From the IMG/VR virus record IMGVR_UViG_2630968639_000008: a stretch of 33,922 bases of DNA; one strand, written 5' to 3'. Each line of letters starts with the position of its first letter. Positions within the stretch are counted from its first letter, which is position 1. The position numbers and the translations under genes are program-made. Under the pieces are notes generated by a model. It ran no database searches, was not told the DNA's origin, and saw nothing but the letters and a program-made list of their open reading frames with translations. Shown one piece after another: positions 10,777-28,715 of this stretch. Source of the DNA: a virus (lineage: Duplodnaviria > Heunggongvirae > Uroviricota > Caudoviricetes).

Positions 10777-12076
10777 TTACACTGGTGTGTTCAGCAAATC
10801 GTTAACGGCATCAGATGCCGGGTTACCTGCAGCCAGCGGTGCCGGTGCCCCCTGCATCAGACGATCCAGCGCAGTGTCACTGCGCGCCTGTGCACTCTGT
10901 GGTGCTGCGGCCAGAATGCGGCGGGCCGTTTCCACGGTCATACCGGGGGTTTCTGCCAGCACGCGGGCCTGTTCTTCGCGTCCGTGAGCCTCCTCACAGT
11001 TGAGGATCCCCATAATGCGGCTGTTTTCTGCCGCAACCGCTGCGGTGATCTGCGCGTTCACGTCCGGCTGCGCCGCGCTGGCGTTTTCGCCCTCCGTCGC
11101 TGGCACCACGTCAGTAACGTCAGCCTACGAAGCAGTGGCTGAAACAGTTGTTGATTGAGTCTCTTTGGTCATTCGCCCTCCTGAGAGACGGGATTTACGT
11201 GCATCCAGTGCATCACGCATGACGGTGATCGCATCGGTGCTGTTAACAAGTTCATCAGCCAGTCCGGCATCAATGGCCTCCTGACCGCTGTACACTGCAG
11301 CCTCGGTATCCAGCACAGCCTGCACGGACAGGCCGGTATATGCCGACACCTTCTGCGCAAACATCCGGCGGGTTGCATCCATCCGGGACTGCAGTGTCTC
11401 CCGGACGTCATCCGGAAGATGGCTGTAGGGGTTGCCATCCACCTTATGGCTGCCGCTGTAAATCAGCGTGATTTCCACGCCCTGTTTCTCCAGCGCAGCA
11501 CCGTAATTACTGTGAGCCATCATGACGCCGATGGAGCCTGTCCGGGCGGTCTGCGTGACCAGACGCCGGGAGGCGGCGCTGGCAAGCAGCTGACCTGCAC
11601 TGCAGTTCATGTCGTTGGCCAGCGCCCATACCGGTTTTATGTCTCGCACACGGGCGATGATGTCAGCACAGTCAAATGCTCCCGCCACCATCCCGCCCGG
11701 TGTGTCCATATCGAGCAGAATGCCGTCCACCATCGGATCGCTGGCAGCCTGTTGCAGACGGGCGATAATGCCGTTGTAACCGGTCATTCCCGAATACGGC
11801 TGCAGCGCCCGCGTCCGGCTGACCAGCGTACCGGACACCGGCAGCACGGCGATGCCGTTCATGACCTGATAACTGCGGGCCTGTCGTGGTCCGTCATCAT
11901 CACCGGATAACGCCAGCGCCGCGGGTGCCTCTCCGGCAGTCAGGCTGTCGCCGGACACCGCATCCGTCAGGCGACTGATCCCAAGCTGGCCTGCAAGCGC
12001 ACAAAAGAAAATCCGCGCATAGGCGGGTTCAAGCATCAGCGGCTCATTAAAAGCCATGCTGGCAATATGCGGGAGA

Positions 12077-12096
<20 letters not shown>
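10777..12096 (-). pseudogene. C: Prohead protease/scaffold gene C with nested Nu3, interrupted by a single in-frame TAG at 11127..11125
   Basis: GTG start at 12096..12094 preceded by GGAGGAG; the frame is otherwise continuous to the stop at 10777 (439 codons, lambda C length). Reading across the TAG gives ...TVSATAS*ADVTDVVPATEGE... Uninterrupted segments are 11125..12096 and 10777..11109. Would be functional only with amber suppression. Confidence 0.75.
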
Positions 12097-17268: not shown

Positions 17269-17562
17269 ATGAAAAAAATGTTGTTTTCTGCCGCTCTGGC
17301 AATGCTTATTACAGGATGTGCTCAACAGACGTTTACTGTTGGAAACAAACCTACAGCAGTAACACCAAAGGAAACCATCACCCATCATTTCTTCGTTTCG
17401 GGAATTGGACAGGAGAAAACTGTTGATGCAGCCAAAATTTGTGGCGGCGCAGAAAATGTTGTTAAAACAGAAACCCAGCAAACATTCGTAAATGGATTTC
17501 TCGGTTTTATTACTTTAGGCATTTATACTCCGCTGGAAGCGCGTGTGTATTGCTCACAATAA
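17269..17562 (+). CDS. bor: Bor lipoprotein (serum-resistance type lysogenic-conversion protein)
   Basis: Track ORF trimmed to ATG at 17269: MKKMLFSAALAMLITGCAQQ... has a signal peptide and lipobox (LITGC); 97 aa; antisense to the lysis genes as in lambda. Confidence 0.85.
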   Translation: MKKMLFSAALAMLITGCAQQTFTVGNKPTAVTPKETITHHFFVSGIGQEKTVDAAKICGGAENVVKTETQQTFVNGFLGFITLGIYTPLEARVYCSQ

Positions 17563-19336: not shown

Positions 19337-20434
19337 ATGAAAAAATTAACAGTGGCAATTTCTGCTGTAGCTGCATCAGTACTGATGGCGATGTCTGCTC
19401 AGGCAGCTGAAATTTATAATAAAGACAGTAACAAGCTGGATCTGTACGGGAAAGTTAATGCTAAGCACTACTTCTCCTCTAATGATGCAGATGATGGTGA
19501 TACTACTTATGCCCGTCTTGGCTTCAAAGGTGAAACCCAAATCAACGATCAACTGACTGGTTTCGGTCAGTGGGAATATGAATTCAAAGGCAACCGCGCT
19601 GAATCTCAAGGTTCCTCCAAAGATAAAACCCGTCTTGCCTTCGCTGGCCTGAAATTCGGTGACTACGGCTCCATCGATTACGGCCGTAACTACGGTGTAG
19701 CATACGACATCGGTGCGTGGACTGACGTCCTGCCAGAATTCGGTGGTGACACTTGGACTCAAACCGACGTGTTCATGACTCAACGTGCAACTGGTGTTGC
19801 AACCTATCGTAACAACGACTTCTTTGGTCTGGTTGATGGTCTGAATTTTGCTGCTCAGTACCAAGGCAAAAACGATCGTAGCGATTTCGATAACTACACT
19901 GAAGGTAACGGTGATGGCTTCGGTTTCTCTGCTACCTATGAATACGAAGGATTCGGTATCGGTGCAACTTATGCGAAATCTGATCGTACCGACACTCAAG
20001 TTAATGCAGGGAAAGTTCTTCCTGAAGTATTTGCTTCCGGTAAAAATGCAGAAGTTTGGGCCGCAGGTCTGAAATATGACGCTAACAACATTTACCTGGC
20101 CACTACCTATTCTGAAACCCAGAATATGACTGTATTTGCTGATCACTTCGTTGCTAATAAAGCCCAAAACTTCGAAGCTGTTGCACAATATCAGTTCGAT
20201 TTCGGTCTGCGTCCGTCCGTTGCTTACCTGCAATCTAAAGGTAAGGATCTTGGAGTATGGGGCGATCAGGACTTAGTCAAATATGTTGATGTAGGTGCAA
20301 CCTATTACTTCAACAAAAATATGTCTACTTTCGTTGATTACAAAATCAACCTGCTTGACAAAAATGACTTCACTAAAGCACTCGGTGTAAGCACTGATGA
20401 CATCGTTGCTGTAGGTCTGGTTTACCAGTTCTAA
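19337..20434 (+). CDS. OmpC/OmpF-family general porin (prophage NmpC/Lc-type), apparently intact
   Basis: 365 aa from ATG 19337 (track ORF starts upstream): signal peptide [29 protein letters not shown], porin beta-barrel hallmarks, C-terminal ...VGLVYQF; long AT-rich promoter region upstream; antisense to Q and S as in DLP12 nmpC. Confidence 0.85.
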
Positions 20435-22497: not shown

Positions 22498-22616
22498 GCT
22501 TCACCTCCGCAGAGGTCAAACGCTGGATGCAAAGAATTGCAGGTGCATTTCTGCATCTGTGAAGGGAGAAGAGAGTTTGGATTGTATGTGCGCATAAACG
22601 TCCCCGTTTAGCGCAG

Positions 22617-22649
22617 AAGTCACCGGAGGAGTTCAAACTCCGGTGACTT
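22617..22649. repeat. Perfect 12-bp inverted repeat (AAGTCACCGGAG ... CTCCGGTGACTT) with a 9-nt loop
   Basis: Seen directly; lies at the junction between the nin genes and the AT-rich cargo; no clean U-tract on either strand. Confidence 0.7.
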
Positions 22650-22718
22650 AATTATGACAAGTTGATTATTGAAAATCAAAAGTCATTTAAACAATAATGA
22701 TACCCCGCAAGAGATTTC

Positions 22719-23120
22719 TTATTTTAACTCATAGATCAGACAGTCAACGATTTCTAAACCATTTACCATAGAATTAGAAACGCGAACTTTACCATCGTTG
22801 ACTCTAGCAAATCCTTTTAACATTTTATAAATAAAAGCTGAATCCCCCTTAGCCTCAATTGCTTCTAATGGTATCGGCTTATACTTTTTTGATATGCTAT
22901 TTCTATTTATCTCACTGATTTTTCTATATATTTCTGCCGGTCCACGTTCTGAGAAGTCACTGATAACTAAAATATATCTCCAAGATAGATCTGGGTAATA
23001 AAACCACATTGCAGCATCAATAGTTAAATTCTGTAACTTGAGTTTTTTTAATAAAAATTGACCTGAGAATTCCATATCTTTTGTCAACTCTCTGCCGATT
23101 ACCAGTGTGCTTTTACCCAT
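22719..23120 (-). CDS. Hypothetical protein, downstream partner of the HEPN-like gene (overlapping, translationally coupled)
   Basis: 133-aa ORF; ATG at 23120 with GGAG 9 nt upstream; overlaps the upstream gene by 22 nt; AT-rich codon usage; no motif recognised. Confidence 0.5.
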   Translation of the reverse strand: MGKSTLVIGRELTKDMEFSGQFLLKKLKLQNLTIDAAMWFYYPDLSWRYILVISDFSERGPAEIYRKISEINRNSISKKYKPIPLEAIEAKGDSAFIYKMLKGFARVNDGKVRVSNSMVNGLEIVDCLIYELK

Positions 23121-23515
23121 TTCAAAACTCCAGAATTTTGGTCACCTACAGCATCAAACAATTGTTCGGCCATAGCTTTACTTATGTTATTGTCGTATCT
23201 AAATTGCTCGCTCCAGTCTTTAACGACCGACCAGTTAATCTCCAACGAAACATCATTTTTTGCGTCAGCAATCAAAATTTGATGTAAGTTGGCAATTTTG
23301 AGAAGTTGCGACAAATCATGAGTATATGAATCATTTACGACTTTTTTGTTTGGAAACTCATGTTGTAAAAATGACTTGGCAATACAGGCCTTCAATGCAC
23401 ATTCAACTGCATACCCACAAAGATAATATGCACCATGAAAAAAGCCATGATCAAGCAAGCATTTGGCCTCATTAAGCCTAGTGTCAGATAATGCTTCAAG
23501 GTCGTTTTTATTCAT
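23099..23515 (-). CDS. HEPN-domain-like protein (candidate toxin or abortive-infection nuclease)
   Basis: 138-aa ORF; helical pattern GAYYLCGYAVECALKACIAKSF, THDLSQLL and C-terminal RYDNN resemble HEPN four-helix-bundle proteins; AT-rich; TATAAT sits immediately upstream of the ATG. Confidence 0.55.
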   Translation of the reverse strand: MNKNDLEALSDTRLNEAKCLLDHGFFHGAYYLCGYAVECALKACIAKSFLQHEFPNKKVVNDSYTHDLSQLLKIANLHQILIADAKNDVSLEINWSVVKDWSEQFRYDNNISKAMAEQLFDAVGDQNSGVLKWVKAHW

Positions 23516-23934
23516 ACAATTATAACTTGAATTATCCTAATTTTTATGATTATACCCTTATCAGGTATGATGTAGGAACTGAAAACAATATTGGATATCA
23601 TTTTCGGTATTTCTCTGCAAATTCCAGCCCACAGGATCTCGGTGTACAATCTGTCGCTGATCGCGCAAATTTAGGGTCAATCACTTCATTTTTTGCATCA
23701 AACCCTCACTAACATCGAACGATTATAGTACAAGTAGTGTTCTTGACTTCTCATTAAACCGTCAGCATTCAATTAATTACAAAATACTAGCGGCATTTCT
23801 CTCCCGCAACTTTATTACAGCCGTTCAGAACGTAAATGCGTCAATACTCGAATCAACTGATCATCCTGCCACGACTGAAATCTCAAATAGGCCGTTTCTC
23901 AAGTAAGAGATTTTGAATGCATTATTGGCTACTG

Positions 23935-23962
23935 AAATAAAAAACCCAGCGCCAACTGGGTT
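23935..23962 (-). terminator. Rho-independent terminator after the secreted-protein gene
   Basis: Minus strand: stem AACCCAG / CTGGGTT with loop TTGGCG, followed by TTTTTTATTT; 17 nt downstream of the stop at 23980. Confidence 0.6.
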
Positions 23963-23979
23963 CATATGAAATTTTTTTG

Positions 23980-24474
23980 TCATTTCCAATTGCAAGACTG
24001 TGAAATTTTTTCCACAACCTTATCAATCTCAGACAAGTCAAACTCAACTACTTGCATAGTTGATCCATAAGGTTCAAACCCAAAAATAGCTTTTTTATGC
24101 TTAGCCAAGGTCTTTATAAATTGTATTGGTTGTGGAGCAAATGCAGAATCACCGCCTTCCCCACCACCCCAAACACTCTTGACCGGCTTTCCGCCATCTA
24201 ACCGCACTGTAATTCTTGGGTTGTCCGAACCCATATAATCATTGAATGATAAATAGGCATCTGTTTTGTTATCACTACAACGCAACACCAGTGAAGTTGC
24301 ACGATCAGTACCTGCTTTGTTATATGAATCTGGTGATAAATTAAGAGCCACAAAGTCAGTCTGGTCAGTCATTTTATTTATCTCAGACTTTGTTATCCAC
24401 GGCCCTAACTTCTCTACACCAGCATTTGCTGTAAACGAGGCACTTATGACAAAGGCTAAAATAAATTTTCTCAT
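23980..24474 (-). CDS. Hypothetical secreted/periplasmic protein (moron)
   Basis: 164-aa ORF with a signal peptide (MRKFILAFVISASFTANA/GVEK), AGGAGA RBS 8 nt upstream, own terminator; AT-rich. Confidence 0.6.
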   Translation of the reverse strand: MRKFILAFVISASFTANAGVEKLGPWITKSEINKMTDQTDFVALNLSPDSYNKAGTDRATSLVLRCSDNKTDAYLSFNDYMGSDNPRITVRLDGGKPVKSVWGGGEGGDSAFAPQPIQFIKTLAKHKKAIFGFEPYGSTMQVVEFDLSEIDKVVEKISQSCNWK

Positions 24475-24620
24475 AACCCTATCTCCTTGGCTTCAAAGAA
24501 CTAAATATTATCAAGTCTCTTGCCACTAGAAAACCCACTTTATTTCCAAACTCTGATGGCATTCCTGAAAATCCGCTTCATACTCACTTGCCCCGCCCTA
24601 TCATCCTGAGTAGCTAACCG

Positions 24621-24794
24621 TTAAACAAACGTTCGCCAGACCTTACCATCAATGACCAGGATTCCTGCACGCGCCATTTTAGCTGCTGCCTGATTTATGC
24701 AGGTTACTGTCACACCTGTTGCCGCAGCAACGTCCTGCGCACAGAAGCTCTTATGCGTCCCCAGGTAATAAATAATTGCCTCTTTGCCCGTCAT
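24621..24794 (-). pseudogene. ren: Truncated ren-like gene (57 codons)
   Basis: ATG at 24794 overlapping the P stop; hand translation MTGKEAIIYYLGTHKSFCAQDVAAATGVTVTCINQAAAKMARAGILVIDGKVWRTFV then stop; matches the N-terminal part of lambda Ren as I recall it (full length about 96 aa). Below the track length cutoff. Confidence 0.5.
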
Positions 24795-25492
24795 ACACTT
24801 GCTCCTTTCAGCCCAAACTTAGCTTTGATTTCTGCGATCTTCGCCAGAGCCTGTGCACGATTTAGAGGTCTACCGCCCATGACAGGAAGCTGTTTTACTG
24901 GTTCAGGTATCGCCTCACCACGGTTAATTCGCGCGGTCATACAGGACAGTTCATCGGCAGCCTTGCGCCGTAATTCCGCATCAGGAAGCGCATTGGCCCG
25001 CATGTTCTGGTACAGGTTGGTAACCAGCCAGTAGTGCGCGTTTGATTTCCATGGATAAGACTCTGCGTCCGGATACAGGCCACGCTTCCGGCAATACTCG
25101 TAAACCATATCAACCAGCTCGCTGGCGTTTGGCAGCCCGGCGGTAACGGATGCTTCTTCCCGGCACCAGGCAACAAACTGCCCGGGTGATGGCAGGAATG
25201 GTCGATTCTGCCGACGGGCTACGCGCATTCCTGCGTTAACCTGTTCCATTGTGGTGATCCCGTTTTCCCGGAAAGCCAGAACCCACTGGCGGCGGATTTC
25301 GTTCAGTTCGTTCTGATCCCGGTTAGCCAGGCTCGCAGGGAAAGTTGCCAGTAACTGGCTGAACACACCGTTGATGATCTGCGCTACCTGCTGTACCTGC
25401 GGCTTTTCGTCGTACTGTTCCGGCATATTGTTGGCGATCCGGCGCATCTGCTCACGGTCAAAGTTAACCATCTGTGCGGCGATGTTTTTCAT
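24791..25492 (-). CDS. P: Replication protein P (DnaB helicase loader)
   Basis: 233-aa ORF matching lambda P in length and sequence. Confidence 0.92.
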   Translation of the reverse strand: MKNIAAQMVNFDREQMRRIANNMPEQYDEKPQVQQVAQIINGVFSQLLATFPASLANRDQNELNEIRRQWVLAFRENGITTMEQVNAGMRVARRQNRPFLPSPGQFVAWCREEASVTAGLPNASELVDMVYEYCRKRGLYPDAESYPWKSNAHYWLVTNLYQNMRANALPDAELRRKAADELSCMTARINRGEAIPEPVKQLPVMGGRPLNRAQALAKIAEIKAKFGLKGASV

Positions 25493-27412: not shown

Positions 27413-28105
27413 ATGAAAAAAGAAACTCTTGCTGATCGCTTAAACCTAGCGATGGAACAATCTGGAATGTCTCAAGGCGCTCTTGCAAAGGCGTCTGGCG
27501 TAGCTCAACCCACAATCTGGAGACTGACAAGCGGCAACGCGCGCGGCTCAACAAAAATTGTTGAAATAGCTAATGCATTGGGTGTTCGAACAGAATGGCT
27601 CTCATCAGGCATAGGCCCGATGAGAAATGACGGTCAACAATCAGGGAAGCCTGCTGTCAGCCATTCAAAATACTTCAAGATTGACGTTCTTGATATAGAA
27701 GTCAGTGCCGGACCGGGTGTCATCAACCGTGAGTTTGTGGAAGTTCTACGCTCGGTTGAGTACTCGTTTGACGATGCTCGTCACATGTTCGATGGCAGGA
27801 AGGCGGAAAATATCCGCATTATTAACGTGCGCGGTGACAGCATGTCAGGGACGATCGAACCAGGTGACCTGCTGTTCGTTGATATCACTGTTAAATCTTT
27901 CGACGGTGATGGCATCTATGCGTTTCTGTACGACGACACTGCCCATGTAAAACGTCTTCAAATGATGAAGGATAAGCTGCTGGTTATCTCTGATAACAAG
28001 AGCTACTCGCCGTGGGACCCGATCGAGAAAGACGAGATGAACCGGGTGTTCATATTCGGTAAGGTCATTGGAAGCATGCCGCAGACGTACAGGAAGCATG
28101 GTTAA
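27413..28105 (+). CDS. cI: CI-type prophage repressor (HTH plus S24 LexA-like autopeptidase domain)
   Basis: 230 aa from ATG 27413; N-terminal HTH (MSQGALAKASGVAQPTIWRL); Ala-Gly cleavage site (EVSAGPGV), Ser in RGDSMSG and Lys in HVKRLQ; divergent from cro. Confidence 0.85.
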   Translation: MKKETLADRLNLAMEQSGMSQGALAKASGVAQPTIWRLTSGNARGSTKIVEIANALGVRTEWLSSGIGPMRNDGQQSGKPAVSHSKYFKIDVLDIEVSAGPGVINREFVEVLRSVEYSFDDARHMFDGRKAENIRIINVRGDSMSGTIEPGDLLFVDITVKSFDGDGIYAFLYDDTAHVKRLQMMKDKLLVISDNKSYSPWDPIEKDEMNRVFIFGKVIGSMPQTYRKHG

Positions 28106-28334: not shown

Positions 28335-28715
28335 ATGAGAAAAATCCTAATCGCTGCCATGATGGCATCTCTATTGGCTGGGTGTGCTTCTTCAGGCAAC
28401 CAGCAACTCAAAAATGAAACTGAAACTAGTGTCCAGTCTAAACTTCAGGAAGGTAAAACAACCAAGAATGAGGTTAAATCTTACTTTGGTTCTCCTGATG
28501 CTGTTTCATATACTGACAGTGGAAACGAGATCTGGAAGTACGCCTTTGCAAAAGTAAAAGTTAATGGCACCACTTTTATTCCATTCTATGGATTATTCCA
28601 TAATGGAACGAACGGTACGAAAAAAGAACTTACTATTCTTTTTAACGATGACACGATTAAGAAATACACAATGTCAGAAACCCAAATAAACTCGAAATCA
28701 GGTTGGGCTGACTGA
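28335..28715 (+). CDS. Hypothetical lipoprotein downstream of cI (rex-position moron)
   Basis: 126 aa; signal peptide and lipobox (LLAGC); AT-rich; same strand as cI; followed by a terminator; mid-region resembles a BamE/SmpA_OmlA-like fold only loosely. Confidence 0.6.
   Translation: MRKILIAAMMASLLAGCASSGNQQLKNETETSVQSKLQEGKTTKNEVKSYFGSPDAVSYTDSGNEIWKYAFAKVKVNGTTFIPFYGLFHNGTNGTKKELTILFNDDTIKKYTMSETQINSKSGWAD

Follow-up and report, generated by a model that had tools for sequence, protein, structure and literature searches.

What is a protein named after a type VI secretion system (T6SS) doing in a lambda-like prophage? The question is raised by IMG/VR record IMGVR_UViG_2630968639_000008, a stretch of 33,922 nucleotides (nt) of Caudoviricetes DNA that is referred to here, at its full length, as the window. 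Among the early genes on its minus strand lies a small gene whose product of 164 amino acids (aa) is, with strong support from family searches and a structure model, predicted to be a member of the VasI/TagO superfamily with an IalB-like fold. It is called the TagO-like gene below. A first-pass annotation, made from the letters of the window alone, had taken it for an independently terminated cargo gene. This proved correct: the conclusion that the gene and its flanks form a classic phage moron of about 0.7 kb, lying between a decayed ren gene and the nin genes and distinct from a neighbouring HEPN cassette, is well supported. The unit consists of the following elements.

23980..24474, minus strand: coding sequence of the VasI/TagO-superfamily protein, 164 aa, with an ATG start and a TGA stop (RefSeq WP_001224618.1, phrog_1848)
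24483..24488, minus strand: Shine-Dalgarno sequence AAGGAG, 8 nt 5' of the ATG, read directly in the sequence
24505..24513, minus strand: candidate extended -10 element TGATAATAT with the hexamer TAATAT, 30 nt 5' of the ATG, from a consensus match and positional conservation
23933..23963, minus strand: intrinsic terminator with a 9-bp stem, a 4-nt loop and a T-run, 16-17 nt 3' of the stop codon, from conservation and covariation
23830..24525, no strand assigned: approximate extent of the mobile cassette in the E. coli clade, from sequence shared among different prophages; its upstream edge abuts the ren remnant

The gene and its transcription signals

Compared with homologues of 75-81% identity, the open reading frame (ORF) has a ratio of nonsynonymous to synonymous substitution rates (dN/dS) of 0.10-0.14 and is therefore a real gene under purifying selection. 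Its G+C content is 39%, whereas the P/O and ninB-rusA genes on either side have 51-52%, and the homologues likewise lie 4-14 points under their own flanks. The AT-rich composition and the 164-aa frame with a strong ribosome binding site, both noted in the first pass, are thus confirmed.

The terminator has the sequence GAACCCAGT-TGGC-GCTGGGTTT followed by TTTATTT, with a free energy of -12.2 kcal/mol. Taken alone it is statistically unremarkable. Equally good folding was obtained with 32 of 200 shuffled sequences, and the surrounding 2.5-kb region contained two terminator-like sites against 1.6 expected. It is comparative conservation and covariation, not the folding of a single sequence, that make it convincing. 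A hairpin plus T-run was found within 90 nt past the stop codon in 73 of the 80 homologue-bearing viral loci from IMG/VR; of the remaining seven, two were cut contigs and five came from a single subclade. The stem differed between subclades (AACCCAG/CTGGGTT, AACCCTC/GAGGGTT, AACCCGC/GCGGGTT and AACCTCGC/GCGGGGTT). Across its 15 distinct versions 96.7% of cells paired, and three pairs showed compensatory double changes. The covariation score of the stem was reached by none of 500 shuffles, and control alignments slid out of register paired in only 33-60% of cases. No Rfam RNA family was found at positions 22500-24900 of the window. The first pass had described a textbook terminator 17 nt past the stop, with the stem AACCCAG/CTGGGTT and a T-tract, and this description holds.

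The exceptional subclade (loci L088-L091 and L093) encodes a 171-aa protein of 57% identity. It has no downstream terminator, its next long ORF is 377 nt away, and it is the only group outside the moron pattern.

No promoter was found upstream of the TagO-like gene by a strict sigma-70 consensus scan, and the -35 sequence upstream of the candidate -10 element is weak (TTTTCT, at a 17-nt spacer). Relaxed criteria were applied in a comparison of 40 distinct upstream regions from differing phage backgrounds. Most of these regions contained a -10-like hexamer 30-40 nt before the ATG, with the form TAGGAT for the majority, TAATAT for the E. coli clade and TACTCT or TAACAT for others. In 24 of the 40 the hexamer was preceded by TGn, as in an extended -10 element, and in many TTGTCG or TTGCGC stood 16-17 nt further upstream. 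Beyond this promoter-like element the sequences were unrelated, being the end of a tail-chaperone gene, the terminator of another cassette, or ren. This is good comparative evidence that a putative promoter travels with the gene. The proposal that the gene forms its own transcription unit is supported by its ribosome binding site, terminator and conserved promoter-like element; the empty strict scan and the weak -35 sequence count on the other side. During lytic growth the window copy might additionally be transcribed from pR.

Distribution and genomic surroundings

The window represents a lambda-like prophage that shows only 5 mismatches in 31,323 aligned positions to a prophage of E. coli strain STEC409, which adjoins dsdC/torI. 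Two entries describe the surroundings of the cassette.

Minus strand: early-right genes in the order cro-like, YdaT/cII-like, O, P, ren pseudogene, TagO-like gene, gap, HEPN gene and partner, ninB/ybcN, ninE, ybcO, rusA, Q
24526..24794, minus strand: ren pseudogene with a frameshift and an internal stop, flanking the cassette; the ORF 24621..24794 encodes the Ren N-terminus

Among viral loci of the E. coli clade the shared sequence ends 143-150 nt past the stop codon of the TagO-like gene, after which at least four different downstream neighbours follow. The cassette (positions 23900-24625) was present in 85 of 5426 complete E. coli genomes, with 82 copies at full length and 81 at 99% identity or more. 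Isolates of Shiga toxin-producing (STEC) and enterotoxigenic (ETEC) E. coli are among the carriers. Since the ren remnant lies beside every copy listed for these 85 genomes, it appears that the cassette and the decayed ren are inherited as a block together with the P/O replication module. The isolated phage IdasGreatGrand carries an identical gene in a matching O-P-ren' setting. A terminator of its own, a deviant base composition and presence or absence among related phages are among the hallmarks of a moron as defined by Juhala and Hendrix, and the cassette has these three; a promoter of its own, for which the cassette offers the promoter-like element, and expression from the repressed prophage also belong to the definition. 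A copy of the cassette also lies at 35114..35839 of NZ_CP174001.1, a 43,337-bp record from E. coli SZQ1 that is annotated as a plasmid, though it could represent a phage genome in circular form or a phage-plasmid.

The TagO-like gene and the HEPN pair are about 460 nt of non-coding sequence apart. The pair is also present downstream in only 8 of the 85 cassette-bearing E. coli genomes, and about 77 of them lack it; conversely, O26/O103 STEC carry the HEPN pair without the TagO-like gene. The two are therefore separable. As for the HEPN cassette itself (22719..23515, minus strand), the gene for the 138-aa HEPN protein overlaps that for a 133-aa partner without a family match. The HEPN protein matched PF05168 at 27.8 bits and the PADLOC candidate PDC-M28A at 1.8e-7. 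In O26/O103 STEC the pair adjoins a P22AR-C gene.

All close homologues of the TagO-like gene that could be placed lie in temperate phages or prophages, and no T6SS genes were found near the window copy or any homologue locus examined. In Klebsiella, Enterobacter-like hosts, Citrobacter, Pantoea and Xenorhabdus the homologues are located between the gene for the tail assembly chaperone (DUF6246) and the tape-measure gene, often 42-94 nt before an ORF of 730-1220 aa. The Klebsiella variant was found in 515 blocks of the assembly index. This slot is sometimes shared with other cargo, namely KilA-N/ANT, pRha, Arc, the P22 antirepressor, SocA/Panacea or a cI-like repressor. An informal look for coupling between gene variant and tape-measure type revealed nothing obvious, the same variant being found before ORFs of 732, 1087 and 1122 aa.

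More distant relatives (25-28% identity) occur in Brucella phage BiPBO1, in P2-like phages of E. coli and Klebsiella and in Pasteurella phages. In BiPBO1 (L017, 3012..4429) the TagO-like gp67 (201 aa) starts 9 nt past the gene for the transcriptional repressor gp68 on the same strand, which suggests that the two are co-transcribed in lysogens. In the P2-like phages the gene lies between ogr and attR, as in Escherichia phage 500465-2 (L015, 4235..5465) and Klebsiella phage 3LV2017 (L016, 4001..4429). The protein of 500465-2 has 297 aa; its gene follows a zinc-ribbon gene, a gene for a MokW-like toxin is nearby, and the arrangement may represent a version of the cassette with two genes. Of the remote PF11319 homologues, the four closest to the clade for which a location could be found were L019, L104, L021 and L103. 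None of the four was in a T6SS cluster and all lay beside defence-type genes: HNH and a KAP NTPase; a KAP NTPase; a HigBA-like pair and SIR2; and Mrr with a helix-turn-helix gene. Many proteins called VasI may belong to defence islands.

Could the gene simply serve the lytic cycle? A periplasmic protein made from early-right or late transcription might aid lysis, release or tail function, and the terminator would then be a tR2-like element of the nin region. The window gene points in the same direction as the O-P-ren early operon, and its terminator occupies the position that tR2 has on the established lambda map. Most other phages have the gene within the tail operon, immediately ahead of the tape-measure gene. 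Nevertheless such a role seems distinctly improbable. The gene is absent from most related phages, as its presence in 85 of the 5426 E. coli genomes illustrates, so its function is not essential. Its position varies with the type of phage (nin region, tail operon, beside the repressor, beside attR), and its own promoter-like element and terminator accompany it throughout. The predicted signal peptide, described below, would exclude a cytoplasmic role in virion assembly.

A structural or assembly role was considered separately and rejected, since the protein has a predicted signal peptide and the gene is patchily distributed and varies in its genomic position. The first pass had held that homology to an ordinary phage structural or assembly protein would speak against its proposal; the homology found is of a different kind.

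The protein and its possible role

In a Pfam search the TagO-like protein matched PF11319 (VasI) marginally, with 26.7 bits against a gathering threshold of 26.5 (E = 5.3e-6, residues 56-163). The same family was matched by 29 of 32 diverse relatives, the best at 2.4e-18, and a profile of 25 close homologues found PF11319 proteins at E-values from 1e-21 to 1e-9. Among 1.84 billion proteins this clade profile found 3829 cluster representatives at E<=1e-3 and only seven at E<=1e-30. Within a very large superfamily the phage clade thus forms a small and compact branch. The domain stands at the C-terminal end in most members, whose length is about 200 aa or more, and the TagO-like protein lacks their typical N-terminal extension. 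Residues R65, C66, D93, F145 and C161 are invariant across the diverse relatives. NCBIfam TIGR03360, the equivalog model for the VasI of T6SSs, gave 14.4 bits (E = 0.026) against a cut-off of 124.2, which makes the protein a member of the superfamily but not an orthologue of T6SS VasI.

The gene is already annotated in RefSeq, where its product is named 'type VI secretion system-associated protein TagO', and it has an entry in PHROGs (phrog_1848, E 2.7e-70). The RefSeq name is misleading for this clade, because here the domain occurs as a phage moron away from any T6SS genes. The label 'unknown function' given in the first pass, on the other hand, understates what can be said, since the protein falls in PF11319 and its fold is predicted to be IalB-like.

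This fold, an IalB-like beta-sandwich with two helices, comes from an AlphaFold2 model with a mean predicted local distance difference test (pLDDT) score of 78.7 and a predicted template modelling (pTM) score of 0.75. Structure prediction followed by a fold search had been suggested in the first pass as a check. IalB was the best match in the PDB, and a Foldseek search of the PDB returned nothing at E<=0.001. Neither the protein nor the family profile matched PDB sequences above chance level. The Pfam family IalB (PF06776) was not matched by the window protein, and of the 32 relatives one matched it weakly (8e-4). The fold is used in periplasmic parts of envelope-spanning machines, namely a T6SS accessory protein and a component of the flagellar T-ring.

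The N-terminus of the protein adds one more feature to the list.

24421..24474, minus strand: predicted Sec signal peptide MRKFILAFVISASFTANA, codons 1-18, with cleavage predicted after ANA; read from the sequence, its layout conserved in alignments

Read by eye, MRKFILAFVISASFTANA comprises a positively charged n-region, a hydrophobic core of 11 residues and an AxA cleavage motif, after which the mature protein would begin with GVEK. No lipobox cysteine was found in this N-terminus, so release as a soluble periplasmic protein is predicted, and the mature form should have about 146 aa. The n/h/c layout was kept in all 25 close homologues, in agreement with the clear signal peptide reported in the first pass, and the model gives residues 1-17 a low pLDDT. 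Both C66 and C161 occur in every close homologue and most likely form a disulfide in the exported protein. Taken together, a T6SS accessory domain appears to have been cut down until only the domain and a signal peptide were left, and to have spread as a moron of one gene among several kinds of temperate phage that infect Enterobacterales.

The family name suggests that the protein might act on a T6SS. As a stand-alone VasI/TagO paralogue supplied by the phage it could act from the periplasm, either boosting or readjusting the T6SS of the lysogen in the way of V. cholerae VasI or disturbing an incoming T6SS attack. T6SSs are common in carrier genera such as Escherichia, Klebsiella, Enterobacter, Citrobacter, Pantoea, Serratia and Xenorhabdus, and the protein shares its Pfam family with VCA0118/VasI, the only member studied experimentally, which is needed for full T6SS killing (PMC3166118). 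This is the main rival to the explanation that we favour, and we regard it as unlikely. The score against TIGR03360 is far below the cut-off, the N-terminal extension of typical family members is missing, and there is no T6SS gene near any examined locus. The family name itself predicts little, because a 2026 review still lists the function of TagO/VasI as 'unknown' (PMC13584744).

The predicted fold raises a second possibility, that of a factor in host interaction or virulence. An IalB-like exported protein might alter the cell surface or aid adhesion or invasion, a lysogenic conversion comparable to that by Lom or Bor. It fits this idea that one relative matches Pfam IalB weakly, that the same prophage carries iss/bor and a porin gene, and that STEC and ETEC are among the carrier strains. 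However, the mechanism of IalB itself is undefined, and RgsG, a protein with an IalB domain, acts in envelope growth in non-pathogens (PMC7327166). Carriers of the gene also include environmental hosts and hosts associated with plants and insects (Pantoea, Xenorhabdus), as well as a swamp-mud phage, and the protein has no anchor or secretion signal that would lead past the periplasm. The virulence factor suggested in the first pass is weakly hinted at by the IalB fold, and on balance we consider it hardly probable.

An inhibitor of periplasmic lysozyme or of another peptidoglycan hydrolase, also among the first suggestions, is extremely improbable. A small, predicted exported protein on a prophage would suit such a function, but nothing specific points to it, and no sequence or fold match was found to the lysozyme inhibitors Ivy, PliC/MliC and PliG. 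Roles as lysozyme inhibitor or in T6SS immunity were rejected for want of any sequence or fold match.

The explanation that we favour, tentatively and without calling it probable, is that the TagO-like protein provides envelope-level protection against superinfecting phages, acting at the periplasmic stage of genome delivery. The gene would be transcribed from its own promoter in the lysogen, and in the periplasm the protein would bind part of an envelope-crossing machine. The likeliest target would be the conduit of tape-measure or ejection proteins of an incoming phage, or else a host factor needed by that conduit. Genome entry would then be blocked, and the resulting superinfection exclusion, or envelope-level anti-phage effect, would benefit both prophage and host. 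We infer expression in the lysogen as well as the disulfide. A protective role is favoured because the homologues occupy the slot of gp15, the superinfection exclusion moron of phage HK97, because the BiPBO1 copy adjoins the repressor gene, and because SDIC4B, an anti-phage protein of Serratia, provides a precedent. The defence-type neighbours of the remote relatives and the use of the fold in envelope-spanning machines point in the same direction.

Several observations weigh against this explanation. PHROG 1848 is annotated as 'unknown function' and PADLOC gave no match for the protein. The gene is under strong purifying selection and very highly conserved within E. coli, unlike many exclusion proteins, which show an arms-race pattern. 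The promoter is a consensus-like motif of conserved position with a weak -35 sequence; because the gene lies inside the early-right transcript from pR, it could be mainly a lytic-cycle gene. Export and disulfide are predictions, and the defence-type neighbourhood comes from four loci only.

Protection against superinfection could be part of a wider scheme. Stand-alone VasI/TagO proteins of phages might be periplasmic gatekeepers that recognise tail-like puncturing devices and block the tape-measure or ejection conduits of incoming phages, perhaps also T6SS spikes, while the VasI encoded in T6SS clusters would assist a machine firing outwards. We think this rather doubtful. If it were true, the moron, which is easy to clone, would offer the first mechanistic handle on the VasI/TagO/IalB fold and would stand for a widespread family of phage-encoded exclusion proteins whose PF11319 relatives number in the thousands and in many cases lie away from T6SS clusters, next to defence genes.

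Text searches of the literature found no description of VasI/TagO-family proteins as phage morons. As a moron the cassette is ordinary. Its value lies in a simple experimental route to a fold of open function: VasI/TagO has been a T6SS accessory protein of undefined function since 2011, that is for about 15 years, and a one-gene system that can be tested on a plasmid could reveal what the fold does in the periplasm. Should phage exclusion prove true, it would be relevant to the prediction of host range for phage therapy in Klebsiella, where the gene variant is very common, and in E. coli.

Comparison with known systems

The similarity to IalB of Bartonella (invasion-associated locus B; PDB 3dtd; PF06776) is one of fold only. 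The sequences are 9% identical, and ialB, unlike the moron, is a chromosomal gene of alphaproteobacteria.

With Bor/Iss, Lom, Cor and Llp the TagO-like protein has in common that it is prophage cargo directed to the envelope, where these proteins alter the lysogen surface or phage susceptibility. They are lipoproteins or outer-membrane proteins of unrelated families, whereas the window protein is predicted to be soluble and periplasmic. The same prophage carries further envelope cargo. A porin gene lies between Q and the lysis genes (19337..20434, plus strand) and iss/bor follows the lysis genes (17269..17562, plus strand), both sets of coordinates having been shifted by +2599. A gene at 28335..28715 (plus strand) encodes a 126-aa lipoprotein beginning MRKILIAAMMASLLAGC, with the lipobox LAGC, to which the NCBI annotation pipeline (PGAP) has given the name 'BamE'. 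Its gene comes immediately after that for the cI-like repressor (27413..28105), in the same orientation, at the place occupied by rexAB in lambda. This lipoprotein is another exported product that could serve lysogenic conversion or superinfection exclusion. In the STEC409 prophage PGAP has classified the S49 head protease/scaffold gene (about 10777..12096 of the window, minus strand) as a pseudogene because of an internal stop. The five mismatches between the window and STEC409 all lie elsewhere, so the prophage may be defective.

The closest relation by sequence is to VasI/TagO (VCA0118; PF11319, formerly DUF3121), which shares the homologous domain and predicted export; the RC motif and a C-terminal Cys-x-Trp are found throughout the superfamily. 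VCA0118 of V. cholerae has 227 aa, is predicted to be exported and has no defined role; it is dispensable for the secretion of Hcp and VgrG-1 and required for full killing of amoebae and E. coli (PMC3166118). Its gene is part of a T6SS cluster, in Vibrio between vasH and tssA (PMC5371669, PMC3166118). The window protein, by contrast, has 164 aa, with the domain starting directly after the cleavable signal peptide. Its gene lies outside any T6SS cluster and is carried as a self-contained phage moron, and it fails the equivalog model.

SDIC4B is part of Serratia defence island candidate 4 (PF27224). On its own it gave 10-200-fold protection against phages, and it has a VasI-like fold according to HHpred without BLAST similarity to VasI (bioRxiv 10.1101/2024.01.28.577318). 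We recovered its sequence from the plasmid table of that paper. With 157 aa, a Sec-type signal peptide and no link to a T6SS it may share fold and architecture with the TagO-like protein; both have two cysteines placed alike, at the end of a beta-strand and at the end of the C-terminal helix, the same order of secondary structure elements and the same best PDB match, IalB. At the sequence level no homology to SDIC4B was found (BLASTP E 0.07, hhalign probability 4% and <1%). Membership of the TagO-like gene in SDIC4 was rejected, as profile-profile homology tests failed twice. The two also differ in setting: SDIC4B resides in chromosomal defence islands beside BrxR and SDIC4A, neither of which was found at the window locus, and the window gene is a phage moron. 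The anti-phage activity of SDIC4B has been demonstrated, whereas for the window protein such activity is a proposal.

The gp15 protein of HK97 (YebO family), product of the original moron, mediates superinfection exclusion by blocking the entry of phage genomes in a tail-dependent manner (PMC3594210). It is a small inner-membrane protein, unrelated to the TagO-like protein in sequence and fold, and the window copy lies in the nin region and not in a tail operon. What the two have in common is the textbook anatomy of a moron, a product located in the envelope, as predicted for the window protein, and, for the homologues of the TagO-like gene, the very slot before the tape-measure gene that gp15 occupies.

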